A stretch of DNA of 58,807 nucleotides, counting the filler, from Circinaria calcarea (lineage: Eukaryota): NCBI GenBank assembly GCA_051942165.1. It is 7 parts of 7 records of this genome, joined end to end, with 100 filler letters (N's around TTAATTAATTAA, not from the genome) between each part and the next. Parts side by side here need not be neighbours in the genome. Positions count along the whole stretch, not along the records: positions 42,111 to 50,417 come from JAVECS010001136.1; 6 more parts are not named here. One strand, 5' to 3'. The position numbers and the translations under genes were made by a program. This document shows positions 2 to 52,344 of this stretch, in pieces; the first letter of the stretch is position 1; each line of letters starts with the position of its first letter. Under the pieces are notes generated by a model. That model was not told the DNA's origin, did no database searches, and was given only the letters and a program-made list of their open reading frames with translations.

Positions 2-862
2 ATGGACGGCCTCGGGATAGCCTGGTATACTCCTGCAGCTGGGAACTATATCAAGAGCGTGGAGGGTCCACGACCGGCTCTTTACAAGTCCCAGTCCCCT
101 CCCATTAACGATTTCAACTTTCGGAGTCTCTGCGGCAACACCGAAACCAATTGTCTCTTCGCCCATATCCGTGCGACCAGTGGCAGTGTGGTCTCACAGG
201 TCAACAGCCACCCCTTCGTCTTTGGCCGTCACGTCTTCATGCACAATGGCGTCATCTCCAACTTCTTAACCATCCGGCGCGATATGACCGACCTGATGAC
301 TTATGATGCGTACTGCAATGTTCTGGGAAGCACTGATTCTGAGCATGCAGCCGCGCTTTACATGACCAATCTCACTTCAGGAGGCACAAAAGATACATGG
401 GAGAAAGAATACCCCCTTCAAGATATGTTCAACGCAATGGCTAAGACCGTGATTCAAATCTTGGAGCTCCAACAAAAACATCTAGGTGATAATAAAGCGC
501 CCAATAGTCTCAACTTCTGCACCACAGATGGCAGAAAGCTGGTGGCGATTCGCTTCCGGAACCATGCAACACAACAGCCGCCAAGTCTGTACTGGAGTGA
601 ATTCGCAGGGAGGACTTTGAACCAGAAATTCCCAGAGAATCCGGACGCACCCGATAAAGTGAACGAAGAGGCAAGCAAGAGCAAAGAGGACCGAATCGGC
701 AAGCACACCATCGTGGCAAGTGAACCCACGACTTATGATGATGCGGAGTGGCATTTGATCAGTCGTAATTGTGCCCTTACGGTAGATGAGCATGGAACTG
801 AGAAGGAGGTCCCAATCGAGTATGACGAGAAATTGAATGCAGCAGTTGATCCATATGCTTGA
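2..862 (+). CDS. DUG3: Class II glutamine amidotransferase, DUG3/EgtC-like (5' part missing)
   Basis: ORF has DGLGIAWY, FAHIRATS, NSHPF, FMHNG, GSTDSEH and IVASEP motifs of the GATase_4/Ntn family. The N-terminal catalytic Cys lies outside the window. Confidence 0.75.
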   Translation: MDGLGIAWYTPAAGNYIKSVEGPRPALYKSQSPPINDFNFRSLCGNTETNCLFAHIRATSGSVVSQVNSHPFVFGRHVFMHNGVISNFLTIRRDMTDLMTYDAYCNVLGSTDSEHAAALYMTNLTSGGTKDTWEKEYPLQDMFNAMAKTVIQILELQQKHLGDNKAPNSLNFCTTDGRKLVAIRFRNHATQQPPSLYWSEFAGRTLNQKFPENPDAPDKVNEEASKSKEDRIGKHTIVASEPTTYDDAEWHLISRNCALTVDEHGTEKEVPIEYDEKLNAAVDPYA

Positions 863-8328: not shown

Positions 8329-8428
8329 NNNNNNNNNNNNNNNNNNNNNNNNNNNNNNNNNNNNNNNNNNNNTTAATTAATTAANNNNNNNNNNNNNNNN
8401 NNNNNNNNNNNNNNNNNNNNNNNNNNNN
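8329..8428. other. Artificial contig linker; also at 16754-16853, 25176-25275, 33597-33696, 42011-42110 and 50418-50517
   Basis: N44-TTAATTAATTAA-N44, which gives stops in all six frames. Genes are cut at the junctions. Confidence 0.98.
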
Positions 8429-11809: not shown

Positions 11810-14656
11810 TTATTTTAGAGGAGTAAGCGTAGCAAGAAGGAATAAAGATCCCAACGTGTCTGGGTGCTTAGCCCCTAATTTTTTTTCCCGCCCTTCTAGC
11901 GCTCGTCGACATAATTTTTCCGCTTCTTCGAACCTTTTTTGATCTTGTAGCACGACCACAAGAGCGCTTATGCTTATTAAGGTATCAGGATGCTCAACCC
12001 CTAACACCTTTTCTCTTTTCCTTAATACTTGTCGACACATTTCTTCCGCTGTTTCATACTTTCTTTGCAATCGTAATATAACTGATAGATGGCTCATGCT
12101 GCTCAATGTTTCCGGGTGTTCAATACCTAGCATTTTCGTCCTTCCCCTCAATGCTTGTTGAATCATGTGTTCGGCTGCTTTATACTTTCCTAGCTTCTGG
12201 AGCACGATCGCCAGACTGTTTATACTAAATAGCGAGTCTCGGTGTTCAACGCCCAGTATTTTCTCTCTTATTCCTAATGCTTGTCGAATCATTTGTTCTG
12301 CTGCTTCAAACTTTCCTTGCTCTTGCATTACGATAGCTGAGCTATTCATACTGAATAGGGTGTCCAGGTGCTCAAGGCCTAGTAAATTCTTTCCACCTTC
12401 TAATGCTTGCAGACTCATTCGCTCTGCGGCTTTGTATTTCCCTTGACGTCGCAGTGCTGAAGCTAAGCAATTCATGCTCTTCAACGTGTCTGGATGCTTA
12501 ATGCCAAGCTCCTGTTTTCTTATGTCCATGACTTCTTCTAGTGCATTTTCGCCCTCAGTATACCTTCCATCCCTATATAGACACATTCCAACCTTTTCGA
12601 GTAATGCGACACGACCTTTAATATTTTGGTGTATCTTTGCTGAAAGTATCGCATAAATTGCATGCGGTAAGTAAGATCTCCATAGGATCCGATTCTCGTG
12701 CTTGTCTATTGGAAATGTTTTTGCCAAATGTTGTAGAGCTTGAGACATACATTGATACATCTTCCCATTTTCTAATAGCCAATTGCGCATTGCAAGATGC
12801 ACTAAACGGTGTAGTTTGAGAACTGAATCTGTGCTAACAGATATCCTAGTTACAAATGAGTACGCGTTCAGAACCCCAATAGCGTCGAATAGTTTCTTTC
12901 TAGTAGTCGCTGGTGGAAGAAGCGATTGCGGAATATTCTTGGGCTCAATGCAGGCCATGAAAGATAGATACTCGACCGCTAATGAGTCACGTTGCTGAAT
13001 CTGCTCGAAAGAGATTAGCCACGTCGTCACAACTGGGTTCTTCACGTTGCGATATCTGGTGTTGTCTTCGAAGTCCTGACTGAGCAACTCAACAGCCTCT
13101 TCTTCTTGTCCTGACAAGAGCGACAGATAATCAGAAAGAGTGATCCCAGTTTGACTAATGTACGCTGCGGCCTGCACAATAGCCAGTGGCAGGTAAGTAA
13201 GCTCAGCCACTAGGGAAATTGCGTCGTGCCGCTGCTTGGCGAGGTCATGATCGTGCAGGTAGCTTTTGGGCAGCTCCATGGCAGCCTCTTCGCTCAGTTC
13301 TGAGACTTTCATGACGCTGTGTGGTGCCAGCTGAGCCGCCGTCTTTCTGTCACATGTCGTAAACACTACTGAGCCCTGCTCGCTCCTCGGAATATATTCG
13401 ATTAGATCTTGGCATCGTGGTTCAGTGTTCTGGCTAGTGACTTTTACGGATCCTGGCTTGGCCATCCACATCTCGATATCGTCGGCGTTATCAAACACAA
13501 GCAGCCATGGGCCCACATCTTCATTACTCAAATACTCTTGCACAAGCCTTTTTACGTCCGCTTTTTCATCTTCCGAGCCAGGGATCTTAAGCTGCAGGGC
13601 AACATCGAGGTAAGATTGATGAAGGCTTTCTAAGTTGTTGGCCATAATCCAGATGATTAAATAGTTTTTACGCTTATCGGAAATACGTAAAAGCAGCTCA
13701 AGTACCAATTGCGTCTTCCCGACCCCTCCAAGGCCCGTGATAGCAAGCTTTGCGGTACGATTCTCGCTGAATAGCTTTTCTTCAAGCCAAGCGAGCTCGA
13801 ACTCGCGGCCAGTGAAATGAGGATTTCTTTCTAATGGCACGATCCATTTCGGACGTATTCTGGCCGCTTTTTGTTGTTCCGCAGGGAATAATATAGGTTG
13901 AACTTGAAGAGACGCATCAAGCAGATGATCTTTTGAGTACCTATCGATCTCATCTCGAAGACGACGGAACGCGTTACGTTCTCCCTCACCATAGATGGCC
14001 GGTATACTAATGTCGAAGATCCCAAGAAGAGAGTAAGCCTTGTCCTCCTTGCGCTTGGCTGATCTCTTTTCTGCCCAAGATAGCCGCTCGGCAACACTGA
14101 ACCGCGAGAGCAGCTCCCCTCGAAGCGCATGTATTGATATTCGCGTAATTTGGTGAAGTTGTTGTTCTAACGACTCCTTGTCTCCGAGTCTCAGATGCTC
14201 ACGGCAAAAGAACTCTACACATTGAGGAGCAATGAGCTCTTGCAGCGTCCAGCTTCGGGTGAACCATCTGCTCTTGCGCAACTGCGAGTCTCTATCGTTT
14301 TCGCCGCTGGGCGTTGAAACATCTGTAAGGAACACATAACTTTTTTTCGCATTTCTGTACCATCGGAACATGGAATTGATGTTTTCAGAAAGCTCTGCGG
14401 CACTCGTTTTATCGATACAACAGGTGTCCACCCAGAAATACCGTAAGCCATCTCTAGCCGCTTGTTCGCCGCAGAATTTGATCTTCTCGTATCCGGCCTT
14501 GCCTCGGCCTGAACCCTTCATCATATCTTCAAAGGTGACCTCTTGGCTCTCATCTCCCCATGTGTGAGAGAGGATGGCATATTGAGGGATCGCATCATCG
14601 AGCAACTCCCCAGTCACGCGGAAGTCTCCGTTCGGTAGAATATCTAAAAGACGCAT
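11810..14656 (-). CDS. Fungal NLR: HET - NB-ARC - TPR, intronless, ~948 aa from MRLLD
   Basis: HET domain (YAILSHTWG, FWVDTCCIDK, WFTRSWTLQEL), P-loop GLGGVGKT, Walker B LLVFDNAD, YLPLAI, LHRLVH, and six 42-aa HPDTL-type TPR repeats. Confidence 0.95.
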   Translation of the reverse strand: MRLLDILPNGDFRVTGELLDDAIPQYAILSHTWGDESQEVTFEDMMKGSGRGKAGYEKIKFCGEQAARDGLRYFWVDTCCIDKTSAAELSENINSMFRWYRNAKKSYVFLTDVSTPSGENDRDSQLRKSRWFTRSWTLQELIAPQCVEFFCREHLRLGDKESLEQQLHQITRISIHALRGELLSRFSVAERLSWAEKRSAKRKEDKAYSLLGIFDISIPAIYGEGERNAFRRLRDEIDRYSKDHLLDASLQVQPILFPAEQQKAARIRPKWIVPLERNPHFTGREFELAWLEEKLFSENRTAKLAITGLGGVGKTQLVLELLLRISDKRKNYLIIWIMANNLESLHQSYLDVALQLKIPGSEDEKADVKRLVQEYLSNEDVGPWLLVFDNADDIEMWMAKPGSVKVTSQNTEPRCQDLIEYIPRSEQGSVVFTTCDRKTAAQLAPHSVMKVSELSEEAAMELPKSYLHDHDLAKQRHDAISLVAELTYLPLAIVQAAAYISQTGITLSDYLSLLSGQEEEAVELLSQDFEDNTRYRNVKNPVVTTWLISFEQIQQRDSLAVEYLSFMACIEPKNIPQSLLPPATTRKKLFDAIGVLNAYSFVTRISVSTDSVLKLHRLVHLAMRNWLLENGKMYQCMSQALQHLAKTFPIDKHENRILWRSYLPHAIYAILSAKIHQNIKGRVALLEKVGMCLYRDGRYTEGENALEEVMDIRKQELGIKHPDTLKSMNCLASALRRQGKYKAAERMSLQALEGGKNLLGLEHLDTLFSMNSSAIVMQEQGKFEAAEQMIRQALGIREKILGVEHRDSLFSINSLAIVLQKLGKYKAAEHMIQQALRGRTKMLGIEHPETLSSMSHLSVILRLQRKYETAEEMCRQVLRKREKVLGVEHPDTLISISALVVVLQDQKRFEEAEKLCRRALEGREKKLGAKHPDTLGSLFLLATLTPLK

Positions 14657-14975
14657 GGTCAGATAGGAAATCCCAAGGCTTTGGAGGACAGTCCGTCGAA
14701 GGCAATTCAAGCTCGACAGCGACCGCAAGTTCGAGATGTGGGCGAGGATTTCTCGTGTTGGGACTTAGAGATTGGGTGAACTGATCAGCAAGAGGATTGA
14801 ATGTCTTAAAGGCCTTATCACCTTCTAGGGATTCCAGTAGCCTCCAGACGAAGCTGAGGCGTTGCGCCTGAAGCCGAAGGAAAGGGGGAGAGGCATATAT
14901 TTAGGTAGTCAATTTGGCAGAACAAATCCTTAGCTACACTACCTAGTATCGTTATAAATAACTCAGCCACACTTT

Positions 14976-16752: not shown

Positions 16753-16854
16753 ANNNNNNNNNNNNNNNNNNNNNNNNNNNNNNNNNNNNNNNNNNNNTTA
16801 ATTAATTAANNNNNNNNNNNNNNNNNNNNNNNNNNNNNNNNNNNNNNNNNNNNC

Positions 16855-25145: not shown

Positions 25146-25275
25146 GGCGTGGACAAGAACTTCGAAGGTGTCCTGNNNNNNNNNNNNNNNNNNNNNNNNN
25201 NNNNNNNNNNNNNNNNNNNTTAATTAATTAANNNNNNNNNNNNNNNNNNNNNNNNNNNNNNNNNNNNNNNNNNNN

Positions 25276-27247: not shown

Positions 27248-29816
27248 ATGGATCCGCTCTCTATCATCGCAGGCTCTATTGCCGTTCTTGGTGCCGGCGG
27301 AAAAGTAGTCAAGGGGCTTACAAAACTCAAAGACTTGCGCAATGTTCCCGATCTATTACTGGCGGTCGTCAACGAGGTATCAGATCTCAGCCTGATCGTG
27401 CAGGAAATCAGGGCAATATTCGGGCAAGATACGATACATGGAACGATCCCACCGACGGCAACTTCTACTCTAACTCAACTCCTTGATCGTGCGCAGGTGG
27501 TTCTCCTTGAACTCGACCAGATCATCAACTACCGACTACTCTTGCCGCCAAACAATGATGATGAGATCAACGTCAGCCACTCTGCTTGGCTTGGCGAAGA
27601 ACGCCATGTTCTTAAACTTCAAACGAGACTACGTACGATCAGATTAGACATAGTGGCAGGACTCGCGACCTTGAATTTGTTAGTGACTACCACGAAGTTC
27701 AAAAGGAGTTGCTGACAAGTTGTCATACCGCTTTAGGTCAAGTGCCCTTCGCCTTGAAGTCAGACTACAAGAGCTTGGCATCATGACCGAAAATGTCCAG
27801 CAATCACAACAGCTGTGCGAAGACCATCTCAGGCAAGCTCCACGACAGGATGCGGTGGAGCAAATGTTTGCGCAACTACGTCACTTGCAAGACCTCCAAT
27901 ACCGCACTGATAGTACTCTACGTGGCCTAAGCAATGACCTCATCACGTCTAGGGAGCTCACAGCTTGTTCGAGCGTCAACCAGCAAAGTCCCAGGGGTAT
28001 ATCGACGGTGACTGGACCACTGATATCTGACAGAGTGACTCTACCCAGGTCGTCAAATGCCATAAACATTAAAGTGAAGCAATACCGCGGTGCATCCTGT
28101 CCACCGAGATGTTTATGCAAATGCCATACGAGCAAGCAGATGAGAAGTCCCCAGCTCTTAGATCGGTTAATAGGAAACCTATTTTTGGGTTACTCACATA
28201 CCCCGATCTTCGCACCTAGTTGTGACAAGGCTACTTGCGGTCAACTTCCATTCTGTTTCATCACTATTACATATCTATTCCCAACTTGGTTCCTGCATCA
28301 AATTTTGTCAATATTTTTTGTGTACACGAAACGAGATGGGCCCGCTTTAAGCTTAAGGACGCTGAGGATTCGTTCTGGAACTGATGTGATTTTTCACTCC
28401 GCTGCTATTGGCGATATTACCCGTATTAAATCATTATTTGCAAAAGGGGAAGCATCTCCTTTTGATGTTATGGCAGCGAGTGGTCAATCGCTTTTAGACG
28501 TAAAGAAAGTCAACCCACCTGCGGAAGTAATTACTTACCCGCATCCAGATGGCTATCCGCGAAACGAAACATGAGGTATGCCAGCTCTTGCTCAACGAAG
28601 GGGCAGATCCATATTTTCAGATTGGAACCACTTGGCAAGCTAAATATTCTTGGGGTTATCCTTCTTCTAATTAAATAACAGGCCAACTATTGATCTGGCT
28701 TGGAATAAAATACTTCGCGGTATTGGAGATACAAATGCATTGGCAGCTTTTCGACGCATGTTTGCCGATGACAGCTACCTCGAAGATCAGCGTTTTACGA
28801 CTTTGCATAACATAGTTCTCGGTCTAGATTATAGAGATCTGAGAAGCTATCTTCAAACATGCTCCAGGCCTGAGATTGACCGAACTGATAAATTAGGTCG
28901 AACTGCGCTGCATTGGGCAGCAGCTAGAGCTGATCTTGGCGCAGTGCAGAACCTTTTGGCTATGCACGCAGATCCTAACATCATGACTTCTCGGGGTCAT
29001 GGGCCTTTGCATATGGCTGCTGCAAATGGAGTGATTGAGATTATGAACTGCTTGATTGATTCTGGAGCTCAAGCAGACGGAAAGGATGATCACTATCAAA
29101 TTACTCCTTTGATATATATGTGTACCTTTGCGATGCTAAACTCAGATTGTCTAAAGAGACTTATTGACTCAGGAGCTAATGTTGATGCACAAGAATACCG
29201 AGGAGCTACTGCGTTGATATATGCCTCTCAATACAACGCCACCTCAGCTGTTATTATCTTACTGGAAACTCACGCCGATATCAACAAATCGAAGTTTGAC
29301 GGAGAAACACCCTTACATGTAGCTGTCCAAGCGAACAGCCACGATACTTTGGACATACTGTTGTCCCACGATACAAACTGTACATTATACACAGAGCGTT
29401 CCCGCTCGATCCTCCACGAAGCAGCCGGATACGGTGATCTGAAAACATTACAAATCCTCCGATCCGCACGCTTGCAAGGCCTAGAGACCACCAGGAAAGA
29501 CTCAGCAGGAGATACCCCAGAGCGACTTGCAAATCGACGCACCGACGAGCCGCCTGAGTGGCATACCGCTTTTTCCGATCTGTTGGCAAGTGTGACTGAG
29601 GAAATCCCTGAAACGTCACAGCCTGCGGAAAGTGATAACAGCGGAGCAGCTCCCGCATCAACAGCTGTGAGATTTGTCATAGCTGCCATGACACAGCTTT
29701 ACGAAGAGATGCAGCAGATTCACCAATATGCGTCTCAACTTCCCCGCCCGCCGAATGCCGTTCTGCGTGCTTTGCTTGTGATTTGTGTGGCTGTGGCGTG
29801 GCGGCTTCTTCCATAG
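27248..29816 (+). CDS. Fungal STAND-type N-terminal (HeLo-like) helical domain plus ankyrin repeats and a C-terminal hydrophobic helix; 4 exons
   Basis: MDPLSIIAGSIAV start, CPPRCLCKCH, and ankyrin repeats (GRTALHWAA, GHGPLHMAA, GATALIYAS, GETPLHVAV). Introns at ~27679-27736, ~28500-28548 and 28635-28681. Confidence 0.88.
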
Positions 29817-30498: not shown

Positions 30499-32582
30499 AT
30501 GGCATTCTGCCCCACCTGCTACGACCTAGACGGACGGAACTGCGGCTCGAAGAAAACCCCCCAAAGTGATAGTCTCTCTTTTCACTGTACCCTTCAAGCC
30601 CTCGCTCGGCAGCAAGCCCATGGCTGTCCCAGCTGCTCCCTTCTGCTCGACGGTATCCTCCCATACCGCGAGTCTTGGCGGGAAATCACGGAGAGCGAGC
30701 TTGATGTTTCGATTTGGAAGTATGAGAGGACTGCGTCTAATGTGTCGATTAATAGAATCGAGAATACAGGGGTGGGGAATATGAGTCATATGGTGCTTCA
30801 TCTTGAGTTTTTTGTTCTTGAAGGTAAGAATATGGGTTACTATAGGGGGTTTGGGCCTTGGCTGAGGAATAACTGGTTATTAACCATCTTAGTTTGAACT
30901 TGACCGCTTGTGTCTTATGTGCAATTAAGTGATAATTCGGCTGGTTTCACCATCGACACTATTTAATGTAACTACTGATATGTTTTCGTTGAATCCAACT
31001 ACAATCTTAATCCATTTGATGCTAACCGTCTAACAGGTCAGAAAAGCCCTTGGCCGACACTTTCACAGGCAGTACCTATTCCAGAGAATCCTCTCAGCAA
31101 CGAAACTAAAGTCAATGTCTTAACATGGATGCGAGACTGCGATGCTAACCATTCCGCATGCGTGGTGGGTCATTCTCTACTGCCAAAACGCATCTTAGAT
31201 CTAAGAGGTAGAGATGATAAAATGGATACAACCCTCAACGAACCTAACGCAGAGTGCGCTCCTTACATCACTTTCAGTCATTGTTGGGGAGTCAGTTGCC
31301 CGCTAACAACGACCCACGCCACTCTGAGTACTAGGAAGCAGGGCATCAAGTACGAAGATTTGCTTTGCACTTTCCAAGATGCCATTCGTATCTGCTGGTG
31401 GCTGGAGATTCGATACCTGTGGATTGACTCACTATGTATCATCCAAGATGATGTTGAAGACTGGCAGAGGCATTCCGCACAGATGGCTAATTTTTACGAG
31501 CAGTCATATTTGACAATCTCTGCTAGTACAGCATCCGACAGCCATAGTGGCTTTCTGGCCGATCGAGAGAAGACAAAAGTGGTCAGACATATCCAGGGCA
31601 ACGGCTCAGCCACTACTATTTACAGTCGTACGGCGATCAGCCATCTGCAGCTATTCAATATCTCTCAAGCCCTGTTGAGCCAAAGGATCGCTACTTGTTG
31701 TACACCCGGGCCTAGTGTTTTCAAGAGCGGTTCTTAGCAAGGCGCATTCTCCACTTCTTAATATCGGAGGTTGTTTTTGACTGTCGCAGCGGTCATCATT
31801 GTGAGTGTGGTGAGGTTATCCGAGAGTATGGCGCGGCCTTAAAGCACAGTTTTACGGCGATCAACAAAACCAACACCAATCCCGCAATTGAACTGAGCCT
31901 AGCTCCTTACGAACAAAAAGATCCTCGAGAATTCTGGCGAACGCTTGTCAAGGAATACACGGAGAATAGTCTTACCTTCTCCCGTGACAAGCTACCCGCA
32001 CTGTCTGGAATCGCCAGTCGCATGCCAGCCGCAGTGATGGGTTCTTACATTGCGGGTCTCTGAGAGCGAGATATCCCCAGCCAGCTGATCTGGTACGTTC
32101 CTAGCTACGTTAACGTCAGTTGGAGGCGACATACCTCCTATGTCGCTCCTTCCTTCTCTTGGGCATCAATCGATGGGCCTATACTATGGAGAGAATGGCA
32201 TTCTTGGGTAGAGTCTTCGGTAACAGTTCTGGAAGTGCGGCGTGAGCTTAAAGGAGTTGATCCAACCGGAGAGGTCTCGTACGGGTATATCACCTTATGC
32301 AGAGCTCTGATTACCGTCCGAATCATCCAAGTTCATGGAGTTGCCCATGTGGAGAAATCTGGATCCAGCAAGAAGGTGAAGTTGGACATACCGAGCGATT
32401 TGGCGTCCCTCGAAGGCGAATCTGTTTATTGTTTTAGACTGTTTACCTACTACGGCGTGATGGCGTTGGTACTCAGACGCTTAGCCAAGTCCGAGGACAC
32501 CTATGACCGGATAGGTCTCGTCAAGAACGCTGACAAGGTTTGGTTTCACAATGCTCCTGACAGTATAGTGACAATAATATAA
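30499..32582 (+). pseudogene. HET-domain heterokaryon incompatibility protein, disrupted
   Basis: LPKRILD, YITFSHCWG, YLWIDSLCIIQD, TRA*CFQER, DKLPALSG, YIAGL* and APSFSWAS motifs. Frameshift at ~31650-31700, TAG at 31713 and TGA at 32061. Confidence 0.88.
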
Positions 32583-33696
32583 TGGAATTGGGACTTGAAC
32601 CAGCATTTCGGTCGTTTTTTCCTACCGAAATAACCTCTTACAGCACTCGTGTGGCGCCCCTGTCAGCTGAATAATGAGAATGCGCAAGGCAGTATTAGCG
32701 CCATACTGCTAGTAGTAGCGCGCAGTAAATCAAATATGTTAGCTCTCTTTCCCAAGCTTACTTTGGTTCATTGAAGTGGGAAGGAAGATGCAGCAAATCA
32801 TGGGCTATTTGGCTTCCGCCCGAGATTGATAAGTGAAAACAGTTTTTAGCAATAGCTTGAAATGTCAGCTTTACGCTCTGTTAGTCGTCAACAAATACAG
32901 CTACTGGTCTCGGTAATGAATAGCTCAGGTCTTAGCCCTGCGCACACGCTCAAGGGACGTAGCATAATATAATGCTATCCAAAACATCCAGAATCATCCA
33001 AAACAGCCGGGTGACCTTAGAAACTCCACCACACTGACATTTTGCATTGCAGACTTTCCTACCCGCGGTCCTGGCGAGTGCTCTCAGAACAGATAGAAAG
33101 AGAGTGGTGGTCGGAGAAAAAAAAGGTATTGTACAAGAAGGAGAACGGGGGCTAAATATCTTTATAGCGTATCGGGGTATCAATTCGAAGGAAAGAAATT
33201 AGGTTTGAGAAATATTATCATCACGCTAGGATATCCTTTGACAGATTCCCCATGCAGAAAGTACAGCAGCAGTTCCTAAAATACAAGCTATTAAAATAAT
33301 GAGCTAGTGTTCGGTGGCTAGGGCTTTGGCTAGGCTAGGCTAACGATGCTCTCCCTAGCAAATTCACCTATCCACTTCATTATCTCGCAACATCGCTCCC
33401 CTTAATCTTACCTAAATAAGCTCTCTTCAGAACAAGCCATCGTTCACGTATCAACCCTTTTAAATCATTACTATGCACCGTCCAGGGGAATCTCTAACCC
33501 CATTCTCAATTCTCATTCTCGTTCCCGTCATACCCACACCCACTCCAGAGCCTCGAAAGGGCTCCTTTCTAATCGAACCATCACCCCACCCCCCCCNNNN
33601 NNNNNNNNNNNNNNNNNNNNNNNNNNNNNNNNNNNNNNNNTTAATTAATTAANNNNNNNNNNNNNNNNNNNNNNNNNNNNNNNNNNNNNNNNNNNN

Positions 33697-42010: not shown

Positions 42011-42110
42011 NNNNNNNNNNNNNNNNNNNNNNNNNNNNNNNNNNNNNNNNNNNNTTAATTAATTAANNNNNNNNNNNNNNNNNNNNNNNNNNNNNNNNNN
42101 NNNNNNNNNN

Positions 42111-42763
42111 CGTCAACCCAACCCCCCTTCTCCAACCGTCAATTCTCGCCTTCCACGCCCCCACCCCCTCCGATCTAACCGGCCAACTCCTCCTCCGCGC
42201 CATCCGAGATCAAATCGCCCTCCTATATGGGGACTACGGCGTCGGCGTTACGGGAGCAGGGGGCGGATTGAGCGGTACGATACTCATCCCCACCTTTGCA
42301 TCCTGCCCCTCAATTCCCCACTTTCGTTTCATAACATTAACCGACGCGCTTAGTAAAATATTTCTCCCCATCCACCTCGACCTTCATCCTCCGCTCCCCG
42401 CGCGCGCACTATCGCCTAGTCTGGGCCGCGCTGACGCTGACGACGCATCTCCCTTCAGCGAGCAAAGTCCCCAAGCCGCAGCAGAGAAGGAAGTGCGTAA
42501 TGCGGGTTGTTAGAGTTAGTGGGACGATTCGCAAGGTTGAGGAGGAGGCAATTCGGCGGGCTAGAGGGGATATTTTGAGAGCGAGGAGGGAGGAGGGAGG
42601 AGGAGAGGTAATGGGAATTGGGATAGAGGTGGGGGTGGAGAAGATTGGGCTGGATGCGATGGCGGGAGGGGTAGTAAGAGAGGGATCGGAGAGGGCGGAT
42701 GGAAACGGGGATGAGCAAGGAGAAAGTGGCGAGGAGAGTGACAGGCTGACTGTGGGATTTTGA
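42111..42763 (+). CDS. POP5: RNase P/MRP subunit Pop5 (5' truncated)
   Basis: LLYGDYG, intron, VKYFSPSTSTFILR, HYRLVWAALT and VVRVSGTIRKVEEEAIRRAR. Confidence 0.9.
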
Positions 42764-42902
42764 GGGTTGGAGGAGCTGGATATTAGCGCCTGTGGAGAAT
42801 GCGTGTCCAAGAGATCGTTTTCCTGTATTGAGGAAACGGACTGATCCCGATGCATACCAAAAGCCCGTACAGTACGCTGTAAGCATCATAAATAGCGTGG
42901 TA

Positions 42903-44075
42903 TCACCCTCGCCGTACAATTTTGACTCCACCGTCAGGAAAATGTCGCTCGATCTCCTCAGCCTCGCTATCTCCTTCCTCATCTCCAGCGTCGTCCACCA
43001 GACCTGGCGCTTCTCGCGCCCTAGCCTCTTCCTCCCACTCCTTTCTCTCTTTCTCGTCAAACTCATCTTTTCTATCCAACCACCTCTCCTGCACATCCCT
43101 TACATCCATCACCTTCATTCCGCTTCTCATAGCAACCTGCCATACCGTATCGTTCGCCCCCTCTGCGCCTCCAAATGCATACCCGCCTGCACGGTCGATG
43201 GCATGTAGGAGAGTCATCATACTCTTTTTGTCTTCTACAGCTAGTGTTTCAAAGCTGACGAGGCCGAAATCTTCGACTAATTCGATGATGGCTTTGTTTA
43301 GGCCTTCGAATTTGGAATTCGCCACAATGCCGGATTCTTGTTCCATATATGGGAGAAGGTAGGAGAGATCATGAACTTCGGTGTAGAAGTCAAGATTGAA
43401 GGGCAAGGGCGTGTACGTAGAGAGCTTGTCGATCTTCGTAAGGACGTTGAGGTGGGGGAGATCCATCTGTAGCATGGCGCGAAGGGAGAGTAAAAGTGTT
43501 GAGATGTATAGGGATGGTAGTGTCAGGCTATATGAGTCTGTCAGGTGTAGTGCGACTAGCTACCAAGAATATTCGATTAGTAAAACGTTCAACGAGAAAC
43601 GGTACGGGAGAGGGTGGGAGCAGACTCTGTACCCAAGCTTCTGTATCCGGAAAAAAATATTTCGTAATGACGAATGGTGCGTAAATAATTCCACCTGGCC
43701 AGGGCAATCAAAGAGTACATAATCCTCTATAGCATCGTCCCTATCAGCCTTCCACCCCCCAAACACCCCTGCTCATGTCTTCCTACCTCCAAGCCCCTTC
43801 AACCCATCCTCTAGCCACCCCCAATTATGTTCCAGTTCTTCGAGGGCATAAAGTACTGCTCCATTTGGTCCTAGCTCAAGATCCTCCATGGTTTCTTCTA
43901 TGGTTACAAGCTCCCGAACATCCAGCGCGCACGGGTAGGATGTATGATCGTTTGCAGGATCGAGGTTGACAACGGAGCATTTTCGTCCGATGGCGGAGAG
44001 GAATTGATGCATACCATCGCAATATGTAGATTTTCCTGAGCCAGGAGGCCCTATGACCAACTGAGCAAATGGCAT
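42903..44075 (-). CDS. GPN2: GPN-loop GTPase 2, 3 exons
   Basis: MPFAQLVIGPPGSGKSTYC, NLDPAN, LGPNG, FDCPGQVELFTHH, NVLTKID and LPFNLDFYTEV. Confidence 0.95.
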
Positions 44076-44329
44076 CTTTCTTAATGGTTATACCTCGTAT
44101 CTCTAATATATCGAACATCGGAAAATAGAAATTGCCCGAACTGACTTCGGAACGGAAAAACTGCAATGGTCTTATTCTACGTAGTAGATGTATCTGGGCC
44201 TGAGATAGGTTCATGAGGCTTCGGTACCTTTTAGAAACGCAAATTGTTAGCAACATCACGCATGACTCACCTAGAACAATTTGATTGCTTTAATCATCTC
44301 GTATCTACGTTTTTAGTTGAACCTCAACC

Positions 44330-44903
44330 ATGTTTGCGCGCAGAACCTTCCATGTCACAAAGCCATTCTTCACTCATAGATTCTACTGGTCTCAAGCCAC
44401 TTTAACCCTCCCTCCGGACAAAACACTTGAGGTCCGGTGCTCTGTTGAAAAAGGCCTAGATTGCTCGGTGTCGATTGACAGAGAGGCCGGTTGTCAGTTA
44501 GCAGGATCTGAATTGGGTGATGAGGGCACCAGAGTAGATCTGATTTTTTATGGTGGTCGTCATTTTGCCCGTGGTATGATATTCATTGCAGTCCGCTACT
44601 GCTTCTTTTTTGTTCTTATACGCGTGTCTAGATAGGTCCCAGCACTCGCCTCGCTTAACCTTGACACAGGAGGCTGCAAAGCTCATAGAGAATAACCGTG
44701 GCGCTGAGGAAAGACAGGCTACACTGTATCATTTTGGGGGTAGCAATCAGGGTTCTGGTATTGCTTTCAAAGGGACTGAGGGAGGTATGTCATCGTGGCT
44801 CTCTAGCGGAGTTCAACTACTAATGTGCATGAAAGAGGAATTCCTAAATATCACTGCCCAGGGAATGGAAAAGCTCAAGCACGTACTTACAGCCCTGAAG
44901 TAG
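44330..44903 (+). CDS. Hypothetical ~171-aa protein with presequence-like N-terminus, 2 exons
   Basis: Intron 44574-44631 (GTATGA...CTAG) joins two ORF-track frames in phase. The N-terminus MFARRTFHVTKPFFTHRFYWSQ is basic and lacks acidic residues. Confidence 0.65.
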
Positions 44904-45026
44904 CAGGTCCTTCTTCCAAACCGAACTTTAACCTTATGCCACCGAAATCTACGGTGACCAAGAGCGCACACTACTAGGCACGTAAAGCAGATCTCACGCG
45001 TGCATCCCAACTCAACTATGTATATT

Positions 45027-45485
45027 CTATGCATCGTTCGATAAAGGCTCCGCCTGCTCTCGTTGAGAGCTTGACGCCTGTCTCCAACGCGTACGATAGA
45101 TGGCCGCCAGTCCTGGTTCGTCCAGTTTGTTCTGAGCCACGTCGGAGTGGGCTTTCTCCAGCACGTCATCCATATCCACCGTCGAAGTACCTTCTTGCAG
45201 TATCATCCCATGCCGTGCCAAGAACATGTTAGCAGCCAACAATGCCGTTCTCTTGTTGCCGTTCCCAAACGCATGGTTCTTGATCAGCTTGACACTGAGA
45301 ACTGCTGCTAGCTCTGCCAGGTCATTCACTCCTCCGTAGTGCTGTTGGTTTATTGGGGATACGACTGCAGATTCGAGGAGGCCCTCATCACGGAGAACGC
45401 TTGTGGATGCGCCTTCCACATACTTGTTAAGCTCCTTGATGTGGATAGCTGCCAGGAACCGGAAGTGTATCATCTTGCTTGCCAT
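45027..45485 (-). CDS. Fic/Doc family protein, Doc (death-on-curing) subfamily, 152 aa from MASKM
   Basis: LRDEGLLESAV..P, DLAELAA and active-site loop KNHAFGNGNKRTALLA..MFLARHG. Lys where AMPylating Fic enzymes have Gly (GNGR). Confidence 0.92.
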   Translation of the reverse strand: MASKMIHFRFLAAIHIKELNKYVEGASTSVLRDEGLLESAVVSPINQQHYGGVNDLAELAAVLSVKLIKNHAFGNGNKRTALLAANMFLARHGMILQEGTSTVDMDDVLEKAHSDVAQNKLDEPGLAAIYRTRWRQASSSQREQAEPLSNDA

Positions 45486-47860
45486 AGCTACGCCACAAGT
45501 AGATGATTTCTCCTGGAGAGTGCCTCTAATTGTCAAGAGGATTGTGGCTAGCAGAGGCTTAGCGTGCTTGAAATGCTGGAAATCAAAAATTCGGGTAGTC
45601 AGCGTACTCCGATGCTAGATTTTATAAATTAGTGCTGGAGCAAAATTCTACAATGTAGTATAGAAACTATTCACCAAGAGAAGACTTATACGACCATCAA
45701 TCACCGCCGAAACCGCCCGGCACTAATCTTAGAAACACCCAAATTTTAGTAGTAGACCTAAGAGTTTCAAATTCTTGTATATTTCCATACCTAGCGTCAA
45801 TCCCACTGAATACAGCCTCCAGAATATAAGTGGCCTTTGTTCCTGTCCTGTTGCAGCCAATAAAAGACGGGATTTGACGTTGTCCCCGGGCCGTCCATCT
45901 TCCGTAGAAAGCCCGGTTTCTAGGGGGGTGGGTTTCGTCAGGTATTTAATTTTCGCCCCGGTACAGTATATAATAAAAACTAGGCGTATTCGCCCCAAGC
46001 CACCCTAAGCCAAGAGAAAGGAGGTGCACTATAGAGAGGGCGCTACGTCTTTAACAGGATGCTGTAGGAATTGGTCACATGTACTCACGTGAGTGCATAT
46101 GTAATATGCACTAGTCTATTTAATATGTAGAGATCTCGCGTAATAGAAGGCAACTTCAGGTAAGGGTTGCTGAAATACTATATTGACACTATGAAATACT
46201 GTTTGTGTGTAGAGAGTAAAGTAGAAACATAGCGCGAGTGTTAGGCAATGTAGCCTCTGTAAAAGGTATAGACCCGAAGTAGCCGAATACGCTAGACACG
46301 GGGCTGAGAAAGGAACCTAAGATCTTGGCGTCAGAAATCACTCTCTGCCTGGTAAGAGAGGTGGTAGGTATATATGAGGCATCAGTTTTATGAAAAAGTT
46401 GTATGTTTAGGAGATATCTCGGCTCATACGGAGGGGATATGAGATTGTTTAAGATGCTTCTTGTCAGTTGACGTTTGCCCTAGTCAAAAAACTAAAGTCA
46501 ACGTAAGCAAAAGCAAGGAAGACTTCCTACTCATAAGAACCAAGCTGCAAAATGGAAAAGGTGCTCGGAAATAGTGCTTGCTCTTAAATGTCTGCGTAGG
46601 AAGGGCTTCGCGGTTCGATAAGAAGCAAGCCGTGCAGTGGGCCTTATTGTCCCGATAATAGAGCTGTATCTGGACCAGCCGTTCACTTTACCAGTAATGG
46701 AGGATACCCAGAAAGAAGCAATATTTGAGTATGGCTCATTTACATCTCCTCATCCTGCATTGCCTGCCTTGCTTTATATGTATGAGTAAAGAAGAACTAC
46801 TCAGTCATGAATTTTCCTTGGTTTCTTTGATGACTGTTTCCACTGCTCGCTCGCCATTTTATGCTATACTGGTCCTAGATCTCGCTTCTTTTGACGTTCC
46901 TCGGTGTATCGCAAAACTTGAGACTTTCCCTTTCTAGAATTTCTCTCCTCGAAGACTAGTTTTCTATCCTGGGAGTGCTTCCTGATCTCTTATTTGTCTG
47001 TCACTTATATTATGTGGCATTAATGCTAGGGCAAGCCTCCCCCTTCAACAAGTCCATTAGACCCCGTACATCGAGAATCTTGGTGCGGCAAGAACAGTAG
47101 GCGGGGCGGCGATATAAATCGAGGCCGGCAAAGCAGTAAGAGAACCCAGACGAAACGAAACCCAGCAGCTAGTCCACGCTCAGGAGGCGTCCAGCTCAGA
47201 AGCGGCTTCAGAAAGTTGCAACTAGAAAAGTCTTAATTTTTGGCTGCCATAAGCACGTGCTGCTCATATTATCACACCTCTATGCGGCCTGTTGCAACGT
47301 ATAAGCTGGCAGGGTGGCTTAACACCATACGATTCCAATACGTTAACAGGCTATCTTAACTTGTGTGTTCACTGCCATAAAGCTACAACTCGTCAACCAA
47401 ATACCCTGTCACCTCAAGGTTTTATTCACGCACCATAGTAATTTGTTAAGTCATTAACATGTACTTCCTTATCTTGAATTGCTAGCTCTCCTACACACTT
47501 CAGAATTCAACCCTACACTTAAATAATTCTTTCGCATTCCCTTCATCGGCTTTCTCTTACCTTTTCATCCACACCGATAAAGAGTTTAGAAATCCATTAA
47601 CCACACCTCAGCATCAACGATACCAGAGCCTCCAATAAGTTAGTCAGACTTCTACCATCCACAATCATTCACCCAAGGACTCCTAGCTGGTCTGATTATC
47701 TGACTTAGGCGTTGAGTACATGTCGTTAACCTACGCTACATAACGTGGACAGAATTTACTGGCTCAAGGACACGAATTCTAAACCCTTCGTTACGTCTAT
47801 TGCAACAGCATTTCGATTTAGTTGGCCCTAAAGTAACACGCAGCATCTTTCACATCTGCA

Positions 47861-48575
47861 ATGCTATCCACGCAGCAAAAGCTGCATGCTCCACCCTCGC
47901 CACCACCAGGCAACGACCCCTCCAGACCAATAGAGATCATAGTCGACTCAAACAACCTCCTTACCATCAAGGCACCTTCTATCAGCTTCTCCTCCGGCAA
48001 TATCCCTCTTGCTGATCTCTCTATCATTAACAATCCTGTCCTCAACAGTACAACCAAAGAAATCGAAGCCACAACGAACTTCGTACAACACCTCCATTCC
48101 CGGGACTCGAGCCTCATATATAGCGTTACGCCCGTAATGGCTGGAGAGGCCATTTCGAACTTCATCGGCAGTCACCGTGGCAATGACCGTGGTGATGTGG
48201 GTTCGAGCGCCGAGACTGGGACTAGAGGCCACAAGGGGCGTGGAGTTAATGGTTCACGAGGCGAGGAGGGTAATAAACGGAAAAGGGATGCTGGTGGTAC
48301 TGGTGAGGGGGTTGATGGGGGGGAATGCCGGGGTAAGCAGAGGAGGGTGGAGGGAGTTGCTGAGGAGGTAATAATTCATGTTAAGAATCAACAGATCTGT
48401 GCTAACTCTTTAACAGCCAACATCATCACACACCGGAAGCGACGCAGAGGCCGAGTCCCAAGAAGGCTCTATCTTCGCACCAGAAGACGTGACTTCCTAC
48501 CAAGGATTTACAGGTGTCACACTTGAGGATGTGGTCAGTACCTCATTCTTCGACGAGGCGTTCTTTCCGGACTAA
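47861..48575 (+). CDS. Hypothetical protein with basic NLS-like patches, probably 2 exons
   Basis: ORF with KRKR and KQRR. A plausible intron at ~48368-48416 (GTAATA..GCTAAC..CAG) leads to an acidic tail ending in TAA at 48573-48575. Confidence 0.45.
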
Positions 48576-49608
48576 TACCTTGGTCCTGCGGGTACGGCTT
48601 GTACGTTACCTTTCAGCATCAGCATACTTGAAGACGATTCTAACGATGCAAACAGGTAGTCTCTTGGCAACTCAGCTCGCTCTCTTTCTTGTATTGAGAC
48701 GGTAGCCTCATATTAGGATTCAAGGGGAAGAGGTCACAGTTTGCTATATTTATAGTTTGAGAGGGACTCGAAGACGAGGGATTGAAAAGCAAGCATCTCA
48801 TCCTACAGAGGCTAGCGTTACAATTTGTACCTTCTTCCTATCACCAAAGCCCAACCAGGAGATTCCCACAAAACAATCCTCGCGCAATCCATCACTTGAA
48901 TTTCCCAATCTCCAATACCCAGCATAACCTTAAAACTTACATCTAGGATCTCCCATCCATTTCGATTCACAGACTAAACTCTCCATTTTCAACTCAACGT
49001 GTGCGTTACTACTATGATTGGGTGGTTGGGTACCTAGTAGCAGACTTTACAGCAGTTGGAATCGGATGCTGTGGTCGTGCTCGTGAGTCGATCTTACTAG
49101 GGCACTGCGGTTTTGGTTGAAGGATTTCTGGCAAGGGTACCGCATTCTATTGGGGACATACGGTTCTTCGATGGTGTTGTAGTTTATAGATAATAAGTGC
49201 GAAAGTGATAATAGAAGGGATGTACCTTGTTTGTGGAACAAGCTCTTCCCGAAAATCAGGTGTTCCGTCTATCTCTCCATCGATTTCAAAGGACTTTAGG
49301 ACGTTAAAAGATTTGCAAGGTCTTGGAAACAACATTCGAGGTGAAGGATCTCTAACGCCTGAAAACATCGCAATGATTCAATAGACTTTACTCTCCCCAC
49401 TAAACCATTCTTCCAAGATGAAGCACGCTCAAGTTTCGCAGCTGTACAACTGGGAACGAAGCAACCCTCATAGGCGATCCCGGAACGGCACTACTATTGG
49501 TCCGTGGCAGATTTACAAACAATACTCTATACAAACAAGCGAGCTCTATACAAACATTGTTCTCACTCCTTGAAGACTGGTGGAGAGTAACATCATGCAA
49601 TAAAGAAG

Positions 49609-50417
49609 ATGACCACCCGTAAGCCTGGACTTCAATATAATTGTAGAATTCCAACTAAACATGTACTAGCACAATACGAGCTCGCCGAGCCTCCCTCCGA
49701 TGCCATCTCAGCCATACAATTCGCGCCTACTTCTCTACGACTACTGGTAGCTTCCTGGGATAAGAATGTTTACTTGTACGATATCTCCAGTCCCGGTGGG
49801 CGCCTCTTACAAACCTTCGAACATCGCGCCCCCGTTTTAGATGTCTGTTTTGGCGAGAACGACGAAGAAGCCTACACGGCAGGTCTAGACTGGGATGTCC
49901 GCAAGTCCGTACCGCCCATTGCCCCATTCTTCCACCCCTCACCAAGAAACTAATCTTCCTCCCTCCTCCTTCCAGACTTAATCTCCAAACCGGCGCTCAG
50001 ACTGTCCTCTCCACCCACTCCGCCGGCGTGAAATCACTCGTCTACAGCCGCCCGCACAAACTCCTCATCTCCGCCTCCTGGGACTCCACGCTCCACATCC
50101 ATCACCTTGATGCATCTCCGCCCTCCACTCCCACGACCATCCCCCTCCCCTCAAAACCCTTCTCCCTCTCCCTCACTGCCTCCAAACTCGTCGTCGCAAT
50201 GGCATCACGCGCCCTACACATCTACGACCTCAAATCCCTCGCCGTCCTAACCTCCCAACTCTCCGCCACCTCCACTGAAAACCGAACGCATACGCTCGAG
50301 ATAGAGCCCTGGCAGCGGAGAGAAAGCAGTCTGAAATTTATGACCAGAGCGGTTGCGTGCATGCCCAATGACGCCGGGTACGCGAGCAGCAGCATCGAAG
50401 GCCGTGTCGCCGTTGAG
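49609..50417 (+). CDS. BUB3: Spindle checkpoint WD40 protein Bub3 (3' truncated)
   Basis: PPSDAIS, LLVASWDK, HRAPVLDVCF and RRESSLKFMTRAVACMPNDAGYASSSIEGRVAVE; two introns. Confidence 0.9.
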
Positions 50418-50685
50418 NNNNNNNNNNNNNNNNNNNNNNNNNNNNNNNNNNNNNNNNNNNNTTAATTAATTAANNNNNNNNNNNNNNNNNNNNNNNNNNN
50501 NNNNNNNNNNNNNNNNNGAGCGGTTGAACTATCCACCGAACGCACATATGGCAGAGCCTTCTGCCATGTAATTCCATAGTGAAGTCCATACACATAGAGT
50601 GGTAGTTACCATAGCCAATACAGCCTATTCCACCCTGTATCACATCCATTGATTAACACTGACCTTCCTGGCAGTCGGCATCCTT

Positions 50686-52344
50686 ATGTTAGGGAAGCCG
50701 ATCCTATCTTGGACTCAAAATCTGGAGACAGTATGGAGCTCAGTCGTCGTGACTCTCTATGGCGATAGGGTCCCTCTGATCTCACCCGATCTCAGCATCC
50801 TCACTGCCGTCGGGGCTCAGCAACTCCATTCTGCGGGAGGAGTCTTTCGAGACCGCTACATCGCCCCGTCCACTCCTGCGGTTGCCAACAATCGAATCAT
50901 ACGTGGCATCTCGACGGACGAAATCGACAACAATCAAATCTTTGTGGAGTCTACCATCGATCCCTTCAATGGCGGTTCCGCTCAAGCTTTCATGCAAGGC
51001 CTTTACCCTCCGACGAACGGGACTATTCGACGGTCTGATGGCACAGAAGAGCAATACCCTCTTGATGGCTACCAATATCCTCAACTCTATACCACATCTC
51101 CTTGGGATCCCAACTCAATCTGGCTAGCTGGTGGAGTCAATTGCAATGCATATAAGGATGCAAGAGAGCAATATTTCAGAAGCCCAGACTTCCAAGAGAA
51201 GGTCTCTGAATCAGAAGCTTTTTATGCCGGCCTTGAACCGGACATCTTCGCAGGGGTATTAAATGATTCCTTGGTCAACTACCGATACGCCTACGATATC
51301 TTCGACTACATAAACTATGCCTACCAATGGAACTCGACGATTACGCGTCAGCTCTCGGTCAAAACTTTGTTTACCATTCGGACGCTGGCGGATGAGTGGG
51401 AACATGCTGTCAATGGCAATGTCTCTGCTGGCAACGGAATCAGCACCATCGCAGGCCAAACTCTCTCCGCACATGTCCTTGGTCTTTTGGTCAGCAATAT
51501 CCAAACCAGTGGTGCAAATAATAAACTCAACCTACTGTTTACCAGCTTCGAGCCCATGGTCTCTTTTGCCGCTTTAGCAGGCCTGACAGATTTTCACGAG
51601 GATTTCTATGGCCTACCTAAGTCAGGCTCGTCTATGATTTTCGAGATGTTTAGCAGCGGGGGTAACTTCTCCAATACATACCTAGACCCGTCTGATCTGA
51701 TGGTTCGGTTTCTCTTCCGCAACGGTACAGATTCTCCGGACAACATAACCCCCTACCCAATTTTTGATTATGATAGGAACTCGCTTGAGATGAGCTTCAA
51801 CGACTTTGTCTCTGGCATGGAAAACGTCATGGTCGCATCAGTTGGCGAGTGGTGTGCTATTTGTCGCAGCCGTAGCATCTTCTGTGCCGCCTTCGCGAAC
51901 GATCTCTCTTCTAACAGCACCGGTTTACCTAGTTCCTCATCTGCAAACGTCAACCCCGCAACGCGCCCCGCTGTTGCTGGGATTATAGGTGCTCTCATAG
52001 GTCTTATCATGGCGGGTACCGTCTTAGCAATTGCTATGCTTGTTTTCGGCGTTCGATTTTTCCGTACAAAAACCAAGCGGCGGTCTGAGCTTGCTGGTTT
52101 CAAAGGCGCGGAGAAATTGGCCTCGGACCGGGATCTGACGATTGTGAAATCCAGCGGAGTTGGTGCAACAGTGGTGGGGAAGGGGCATGAAAGGGTTGGC
52201 AGTTGGGAGCTTGGGGAGAGTAGTCGGGGAAAAGGAGCTGGTTCACGAGAGGTCGGTGGTGGGACAAGAGCCAGCTTCGACGATGATGGGATTAGTGTTA
52301 TCGATCATCATTCCGAACCTGTGAAGGTAGTGGAGAGGGTGTAG
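50686..52344 (+). CDS. Histidine acid phosphatase-fold type I membrane protein with degenerate active site
   Basis: LYGDRVP in place of RHGxRxP, LTAVGAQQL, AQAFMQGLYPP, many N-glycosylation sequons and a C-terminal TM helix. The true start or signal exon is uncertain. Confidence 0.8.
   Translation: MLGKPILSWTQNLETVWSSVVVTLYGDRVPLISPDLSILTAVGAQQLHSAGGVFRDRYIAPSTPAVANNRIIRGISTDEIDNNQIFVESTIDPFNGGSAQAFMQGLYPPTNGTIRRSDGTEEQYPLDGYQYPQLYTTSPWDPNSIWLAGGVNCNAYKDAREQYFRSPDFQEKVSESEAFYAGLEPDIFAGVLNDSLVNYRYAYDIFDYINYAYQWNSTITRQLSVKTLFTIRTLADEWEHAVNGNVSAGNGISTIAGQTLSAHVLGLLVSNIQTSGANNKLNLLFTSFEPMVSFAALAGLTDFHEDFYGLPKSGSSMIFEMFSSGGNFSNTYLDPSDLMVRFLFRNGTDSPDNITPYPIFDYDRNSLEMSFNDFVSGMENVMVASVGEWCAICRSRSIFCAAFANDLSSNSTGLPSSSSANVNPATRPAVAGIIGALIGLIMAGTVLAIAMLVFGVRFFRTKTKRRSELAGFKGAEKLASDRDLTIVKSSGVGATVVGKGHERVGSWELGESSRGKGAGSREVGGGTRASFDDDGISVIDHHSEPVKVVERV

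Follow-up and report, generated by a model that had tools for sequence, protein, structure and literature searches.

A Doc-family gene and its orphan neighbor in the lichen-forming fungus Circinaria calcarea, a possible functional pair

To our knowledge, Doc, a toxin of bacteria and phages, acts by stopping translation and is always checked by a neighboring antitoxin. Here, we describe a Doc-family gene and an adjoining gene of no known family (the orphan) from the lichen-forming fungus Circinaria calcarea (assembly GCA_051942165.1). The two genes lie at positions 44330 to 45485 of the window, by which we mean the whole stretch of 58,807 nucleotides (nt) that was analyzed; positions 42,111 to 50,417 of it come from JAVECS010001136.1. 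The closest described systems are the Phd-Doc module of phage P1 (PDB 3k33, 3dd7, and 3kh2), proteobacterial modules of Doc with MazE/AbrB-type antitoxins, and the stand-alone fungal "DOC family proteins" of Aspergillus, Trichophyton, Microsporum, Pyrenophora, Xylaria, and others.

The C. calcarea locus resembles the P1 module in that its Doc belongs to the Doc subfamily, carries the H.F..GNKR stretch, and has a model that superposes on P1 Doc, and in that a small unrelated gene lies directly beside it. Unlike Phd, however, the orphan product is not Phd/YefM-like, is approximately twice as long, and is predicted to be beta-rich; its gene has introns, encodes a presequence-like N terminus, and is convergent with the Doc gene instead of lying upstream in an operon. 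The proteobacterial modules contain the nearest Docs outside the fungi and pair Doc with partners other than Phd, but they are operons in which antitoxins of 73 to 80 amino acids (aa) overlap the toxin start, and these antitoxins have no detectable homology to the orphan. The stand-alone fungal proteins (~140 to 160 aa) belong to the same fungal Doc clade and have the same active-site stretch, whereas no orphan homologue was detected in those fungi. The fungal drivers wtf and Spok, which are single or dual-transcript genes, are alike in idea, with a poison and an antidote tightly linked in a fungal genome; they belong, however, to gene families other than those of the orphan and Doc. Fungal Doc genes are annotated in many genomes. 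In full-text literature searches, no work on what Doc does in fungi or lichens, or on a partner gene, was found, and a passage in Kinch et al. 2009 (PMC2686095) notes fic/doc sequences in "a few fungi."

Linkage of the orphan and Doc genes

We tentatively propose that the orphan and Doc form a functional pair in which the orphan is a Doc-associated partner, that is, a regulator, inhibitor, or adaptor. We rate this reading at somewhat less than an even chance, and it includes a contact between the orphan and Doc that we infer. It is favored by the lack of any other candidate regulator nearby and by an adjacency that has outlasted a deep divergence, with a change in orientation. In addition, the taxonomic range of the orphan family seems to coincide with that of the lichen Doc subclade. 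In the proposed mechanism, a fungal Doc-family kinase gene that appears to be intact and vertically inherited adjoins the orphan gene. The orphan product would be imported into mitochondria via its basic N terminus, which is enriched in hydroxylated residues and lacks acidic ones. The mature protein, predicted to be a beta-rich domain with a C-terminal helix, would then act on Doc as a regulator, inhibitor, or adaptor. We do not favor an account of the pair as a selfish cassette for addiction or drive like those of bacteria.

The second locus is that of Variospora aurantia, where protein P0015 (LQ341_003089; 189 aa, partial) begins exactly at the start of orphan exon 2. Residues 2 to 54 of P0015 matched the orphan profile (E = 5e-17), and the part after ...KATEG is a Doc domain with 47% identity to the window Doc (E = 2e-24), complete except for approximately the first 16 Doc residues. 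The orphan exon 2 of Variospora was 48% identical to that of the window. Because the orphan segment and the Doc domain are joined in one gene model, the two genes are neighbors in Variospora too. Among the 121 Doc-bearing proteins examined (the best 120 Doc matches and P0015), P0015 was the only one with an orphan-like part. Most simply, P0015 is a merged annotation of two adjacent same-strand genes, and it is probably this rather than a true fusion. The Variospora assembly is described as fragmentary (5,327 contigs; N50 of 8 kb), with genes predicted ab initio with funannotate (PMC9907504). In Variospora, the orphan precedes Doc on one strand, and in the window, the two genes are convergent; the two Docs also fall in different subclades of the lichen set of Docs (39 rows of the tree described below). 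The orphan and Doc were adjacent in both loci with readable context (the window and P0015), two loci of a family that also includes P0004, P0005, and P0007 to P0014. The species named among the best 120 of 2380 Doc matches and those named among the orphan homologues had no member in common.

As judged from its sequence and model, the neighbor of the orphan is an intact Doc-subfamily gene:

45027..45485, minus strand: Doc-family (Fic/Doc fold) gene, single exon, 152 aa, stop codon at 45027-45029, active-site stretch HAFGNGNKR

Its product matched PF02661 (46.8 bits against a cutoff of 24; E = 5.7e-12), TIGR01550 DOC_P1 (59.2 bits against a cutoff of 38.65), and phrog_577, Doc-like toxin (E = 5e-20). 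In the comparison with P1 Doc (3k33; E = 4.4e-6), residues 11 to 104 aligned with residues 9 to 99 of P1 Doc. The Doc active-site motif is H.F.(D/N)(A/G)NKR; the stretch HAFGNGNKR, at residues 71 to 79, aligned with HIFNDANKR of P1 Doc, and H71, N77, K78, and R79 were invariant across 49 aligned sequences. The AlphaFold2 model contained six helices in an all-helical Doc fold (predicted local distance difference test [pLDDT], 77.3). When this model was searched with Foldseek, the top five PDB matches were P1 Doc chains (E = 1.5e-5 to 5.9e-5; target-normalized template modeling [TM] score, 0.81 to 0.83). Because residues 11 to 104 align with residues 9 to 99 of P1 Doc, the window Doc has no N-terminal extension that could serve as a presequence, and its first acidic residue is at position 18. 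The ~2.3 kb upstream of Doc (45486 to 47800) is poor in open reading frames (ORFs) and contains no Pfam-matching frame, no Rfam match, and no tRNA; scans around the locus for Rfam families, tRNAs, promoters and terminators, and repeats gave nothing relevant.

The homology search with Doc gave 2380 proteins at E values of ≤0.001, of which the best 120 are listed; this search was not exhaustive, missing P0015 despite its BLASTP E value of 2e-24, and says nothing about absence. The named lichen-forming fungi among the best 120 were C. calcarea (67% identity), Sclerophora amabilis, Lecanoromycetidae sp., and Usnea florida. Among the same 120 matches, at least nine named fungi are not lichen forming (Durotheca, Xylaria, Pyrenophora, Pleomassaria, Trichophyton, Microsporum, and three Aspergillus species). 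A quick maximum-likelihood tree was calculated for 118 rows, with three rows shorter than 110 aa left out and P0015 cut to its Doc part. In this tree, where long branches meet at the joins described here and the root is the midpoint only, all named fungal Docs lay on one side of one branch (56 rows; Shimodaira-Hasegawa-like approximate likelihood ratio test [SH-aLRT], 97), and the three named bacterial rows all lay on the other side. Within the fungal side, 39 rows form a lichen set (SH-aLRT, 97) and 17 rows form a non-lichen set (SH-aLRT, 99). This topology fits an old acquisition of Doc followed by vertical descent in fungi, rather than a recently mobile cassette. No flanking repeats or element borders were found at the orphan-Doc pair, where no repeat exceeded 27 nt.

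The orphan gene, its family, and its product

Sequence conservation indicates that the orphan is a genuine nuclear gene. Exon 1 was 49% identical to P0012 over 81 aa (E = 3e-24), and exon 2 was 50% identical to P0011 over 50 aa (E = 4e-12). A phmmer search against 1.84 billion representatives, using exon 2 as drawn in an initial annotation of this DNA, gave nine proteins at E values of ≤0.001. Five of the nine (P0004, P0005, P0007, P0008, and P0009) are true homologues with the conserved block. Three others (P0001, P0003, and P0006) are long repetitive proteins and were considered spurious, and P0002 (2231 aa), for which no aligned stretch was listed, was set aside unseen, its sequence not having been retrieved. 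With P0004 as the query, seven proteins were found at E values of ≤0.01 among 40 candidates (P0004 itself, P0010 to P0014, and P0015). All five named homologues are from metagenome-assembled genomes (MAGs) of Teloschistaceae lichen fungi, namely, two species of Pyrenodesmia, Caloplaca ligustica, Kuettlingeria erythrocarpa, and Variospora aurantia; this taxon sample is biased, as few lichen genomes other than these MAGs have been annotated and only some proteins carry names. Neither the phmmer search with exon 2 nor the P0004 search found homologues outside lichen fungi. A search with exon 1 for proteins of 143 to 2000 aa gave nothing at E values of ≤0.01, and Protein Atlas queries with exon 1 and with P0010 gave no usable match. 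No family match was found in Pfam, NCBIfam, PADLOC, or PHROGs; in Pfam and NCBIfam, there was no match at E values of ≤1 for the orphan, nor at E values of ≤10 for 13 family members. As far as these searches see, the sequences suggest a small family confined to lichen-forming Lecanoromycetes.

The empty results, namely, four libraries with no family match, two empty Atlas queries, and an exon 1 search for longer proteins that gave nothing, are what one would expect if the orphan were no gene at all but a chance ORF between two real genes. However, this is contradicted by the conserved homologues with common intron positions (E = 3e-24 and 4e-12), and a moderately confident fold prediction (pLDDT, 69.4; predicted TM [pTM] score, 0.60) also argues against it, so that we consider a chance ORF extremely improbable. 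The initial annotation, which had called the gene an orphan, was right in that the gene is real and belongs to no family known to the four libraries.

The start ATG of the orphan is at 44330 on the plus strand, opening MFARRTFHVTKPFFTHRFY..., and the TAG stop codon is at 44901-44903. The best model has three exons (44330-44573, 44632-44784, and 44836-44903) and encodes 154 aa. The features of the gene and its surroundings are as follows:

44330..44573, plus strand: orphan exon 1, 81 codons and 1 base, an ORF with a GTATGA donor at 44574, 49% identity to P0012
44574..44631, plus strand: orphan intron 1, 58 nt, GTATGA...TAG, phase 1, AG acceptor ending at 44631
44632..44784, plus strand: orphan exon 2, phmmer matches P0004, P0005, P0007, P0008, and P0009, 50% identity to P0011
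44785..44835, plus strand: orphan intron 2, 51 nt, in frame, GTATGT donor, CTAAT branch site at 44820, AG acceptor
44836..44903, plus strand: orphan exon 3 and TAG stop codon, C-terminal helix EEFLNITAQGMEKLKHVLTALK, 41 to 45% identity to the C termini of P0010 and P0011
44904..45026, no strand: spacer between convergent stop codons, 123 bp, from the orphan stop to the Doc stop
44076..44329, no strand: divergent intergenic region, 254 bp, from the start of the GPN-loop GTPase gene (44075, minus strand) to the orphan start (44330, plus strand)
43776..44075, minus strand: 5' exon of the GPN-loop GTPase gene, the divergent neighbor, PF03029 ATP_bind_1 (E = 1.7e-30), ATG at 44075

The presequence-like N terminus (approximately the first 16 to 25 residues) is encoded by exon 1, as is the first half of the beta-rich domain. 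Both intron positions are common to the window orphan and its homologues. In the alignment, the read-through insertions of P0004, P0013, and P0014 fall exactly at the position of intron 1, and homologues without splicing at intron 2 diverge or end just past KGTEG. The models of P0004, P0013, and P0014 read through intron 1 or 2, and their lengths of 171, 154, and 183 aa, respectively, are annotation artifacts. The most conserved block of the family is exon 2 (SPRLTLT.E.A.LI ... GSGIA.KGTEG). In P0010 and P0011, the two homologues with complete ends, ...KGTEG is followed by the helix-forming tail (D/E)(E/V)(F/L)L..TA.GAE.FKK.LRD, and exon 3 was 41 to 45% identical to these tails over 22 columns. 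Because BLASTP with the 21-aa exon 3 piece alone gave no match, the support for exon 3 comes from the alignment together with the splice signals.

This model replaces the two exons and 171 aa of the initial annotation, whose second exon had read through the 51-nt in-frame intron at 44785-44835; the same length of P0004 is a coincidence only. The spacings given there are unchanged. The orphan ends 123 bp, tail to tail, from the Doc stop codon (45027-45029, minus strand; gap, 44904-45026) and starts 254 bp from the divergent GPN gene (ATG at 44075, minus strand; gap, 44076-44329). The 254-bp region is presumably a shared promoter region, and the 3' untranslated regions of the orphan and Doc probably overlap across the 123-bp spacer. 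A further part of the GPN-loop GTPase gene lies at 42906-43475 (PF03029; E = 2.2e-14 for the second exon match).

The N terminus of the orphan product is predicted from its composition to act as a mitochondrial presequence. The first acidic residue is at position 30 in the window orphan and at position 31 in five homologues, with no Asp or Glu earlier. The first 30 residues contain four Arg and Lys residues in the window orphan and six or seven in the five homologues, and six Ser and Thr residues in the window orphan. The N terminus is not a signal peptide, because the longest hydrophobic run in the window orphan and its homologues is three residues. The composition is thereby that of a mitochondrial presequence, being basic, with frequent Ser and Thr, and having no acidic residues and no long hydrophobic core. 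A crude hydrophobic moment was 0.55 for the window orphan versus 0.74 to 0.93 for the homologues. An N terminus of mitochondrial type and free of acidic residues had already been noted in the initial annotation; the first acidic residue at position 30 agrees with this, and the composition is kept in the homologues.

The AlphaFold2 model of P0010, built from a 13-row alignment (pLDDT, 69.4; pTM, 0.60), showed residues 1 to 16 as disordered (pLDDT, <50), followed by eight strands, two short helices, and a long C-terminal helix at residues 138 to 157. The model suggests that the N terminus is followed by a beta-rich domain of ~130 aa that is capped by the C-terminal helix and belongs to no known family. 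Foldseek gave no PDB match at E values of ≤0.001; the best E value was 0.12, and the matches were a weak scatter of PH-like domains with TM scores of <0.3, so that no fold was assigned to the orphan. The best E value of the family profile against PDB sequences was 0.15. An internal duplication of the orphan was considered and rejected (hhalign E = 0.16).

Comparison with bacterial Doc loci and toxin-antidote modules

For comparison with bacteria, the 80 closest Doc loci (L001 to L080) were kept out of 501 confirmed loci. Bacterial Docs nearest the fungal clade came mostly from Alpha- and Betaproteobacteria, with 34 to 54% identity over the best segment. In 76 of the 80 loci, an ORF of 50 aa or more lay upstream on the same strand as Doc; these 76 ORFs comprised 57 of the MazE/AbrB type (PF04014), 4 of Phd/YefM, 1 ribbon-helix-helix (RHH) protein, and 14 of no family. 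The orphan might accordingly be a much-diverged MazE/AbrB-type antitoxin that arrived with Doc, an origin that would suit the 57 of 76 upstream genes, the order in Variospora, where an antitoxin-like gene would stand before Doc, and a 16-column hhalign match between ..IPKHVGN.L of the orphan and ..LPKE.l..L of the antitoxins. However, the hhalign comparison of the orphan with 31 Doc-linked MazE-type antitoxins gave a probability of 1.3%, and the antitoxin profile scored at most 1.9 bits on the orphans versus up to 6.2 bits on shuffled orphans. The orphan profile found nothing among the 1983 ORFs of the 80 loci (best E = 0.29), the IPK stretch is not kept in the window protein, and no AbrB or MazE structure was listed by Foldseek (best E = 0.12). 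With an ORF E value of 0.29 at best, an hhalign probability of 1.3%, and scores within those of shuffles, the orphan as a recognizable descendant of a bacterial antitoxin was rejected, and we regard the diverged-antitoxin origin as very unlikely. This speaks against the antidote role suggested for the orphan in the initial annotation: no resemblance could be detected between the orphan and the antitoxins that accompany the nearest bacterial Docs.

The pair could still be a true toxin-antidote module, in which Doc would poison translation (for example, via mitochondrial EF-Tu), the orphan would neutralize Doc, and the two together would make an addiction, drive, or incompatibility element. The catalytic stretch of Doc is intact, and no other antitoxin candidate lies nearby. 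With the orphan ahead of Doc on one strand, the arrangement in Variospora parallels that of antitoxin and toxin in 76 of the 80 bacterial Doc loci, and HET and NLR non-self-recognition genes also occur in the window. We nevertheless consider this module improbable. Fungal Docs group together (56 rows; SH-aLRT, 97, from a quick search) with the split between lichen and non-lichen fungi that an old gene passed on by vertical descent should show. The pair is flanked by neither repeats nor element borders, most fungal Docs are seemingly without an orphan, and Doc has no presequence. In type II modules, the antitoxin lies directly upstream on the same strand and is cotranscribed with the toxin, whereas the genes in the window are convergent, 123 bp apart, and interrupted by two introns in the orphan; the partner also belongs to none of the known antitoxin families (Phd/YefM, MazE/AbrB, and RHH). 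Phd/YefM and other Pfam antitoxin families were absent at E values of ≤1 from 20 stop-to-stop frames scanned between 45312 and 48523, in agreement with the earlier remark that no Phd-like ORF is found nearby. The addiction, drive, or incompatibility cassette that had also been suggested is disfavored by the grouping of fungal Docs, which looks like vertical descent and not like a mobile cassette. The suggestion of an antidote or partner inside mitochondria holds in part: the presequence-like N terminus of the orphan and the second locus beside Doc speak for it, but Doc has no N-terminal extension, so a common residence in mitochondria is not indicated.

Other features of the window were recorded as well. 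A 984-aa open frame with HET, NB-ARC, and TPR domains at 11813-14764 (minus strand) has the architecture of fungal NLR-type non-self-recognition proteins, and an ankyrin-repeat frame (28671-29813, plus strand) and a second HET-domain frame (30979-31734, plus strand) are also present. These NLR, ankyrin, and HET frames make the region rich in incompatibility-type genes. A class-II glutamine amidotransferase (2-859, plus strand), a cytochrome P450 (39142-39816, plus strand), and a histidine phosphatase (50653-52341, plus strand) are ordinary fungal housekeeping or metabolic frames. Six pairs of 44-N runs, spaced ~8.42 kb apart (8329-8428, 16754-16853, 25176-25275, 33597-33696, 42011-42110, and 50418-50517), look like masking added to the record and not like biology; one pair interrupts a short-chain dehydrogenase gene from 41757 onward.

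Partnership or mere adjacency

Several points weigh against a functional pair. Because Doc has no presequence, an orphan imported into the matrix would not meet it unless Doc had another entry route. Doc was found in nine named non-lichen fungi among the best 120 matches, and no orphan homologue was found there. The orphan resembled neither Phd nor MazE/AbrB nor any other family searched. The informative loci number only two, and because a single-gene inversion leaves neighbors side by side, finding the genes adjacent in two related fungi carries little weight. In addition, the Variospora evidence is an ab initio model on a fragmentary MAG and speaks for same-strand adjacency, not necessarily for a real fusion.

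Several of these points also fit a reading in which the two genes are mere neighbors, the orphan product being specific to its lineage, probably mitochondrial, and unrelated to Doc in function and the adjacency being ancestral synteny with one small inversion. The different orientations at the two informative loci are what local inversions would give. Doc is without a presequence and the orphan apparently has one, many fungi have Doc with no detectable orphan, and the orphan is unlike any antitoxin family. Against this reading, the two lineages are distant, with Docs that are 47% identical and orphan exons 2 that are 48% identical, and the gene order of filamentous ascomycetes decays quickly. 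The apparent match in taxonomic range between the orphan family and the lichen Doc subclade is a further point against it. We judge mere adjacency, too, to be a real possibility that falls a little short of an even chance.

The functional pair can be extended to a bolder proposal, which we consider unlikely and offer as speculation. Lichen fungi may keep a domesticated bacterial Doc kinase under a newly evolved, presequence-bearing partner of unassigned fold. This partner would gate or neutralize the phosphorylation of mitochondrial EF-Tu or eEF1A by Doc, and the result would be a translational dormancy switch under repeated desiccation.

The orphan family is, by sequence comparison, unnamed in every library searched. 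If the two genes are mere neighbors, a corrected gene model and a new lichen-restricted, probably mitochondrial protein family remain. If the pairing is functional, it would represent a eukaryotic variation, new in kind, on the toxin-antitoxin theme. As a true partner of Doc, the orphan would provide a handle on how a eukaryote tolerates and uses a Doc enzyme, and the survival of toxin-antitoxin logic after transfer into eukaryotes would become testable.

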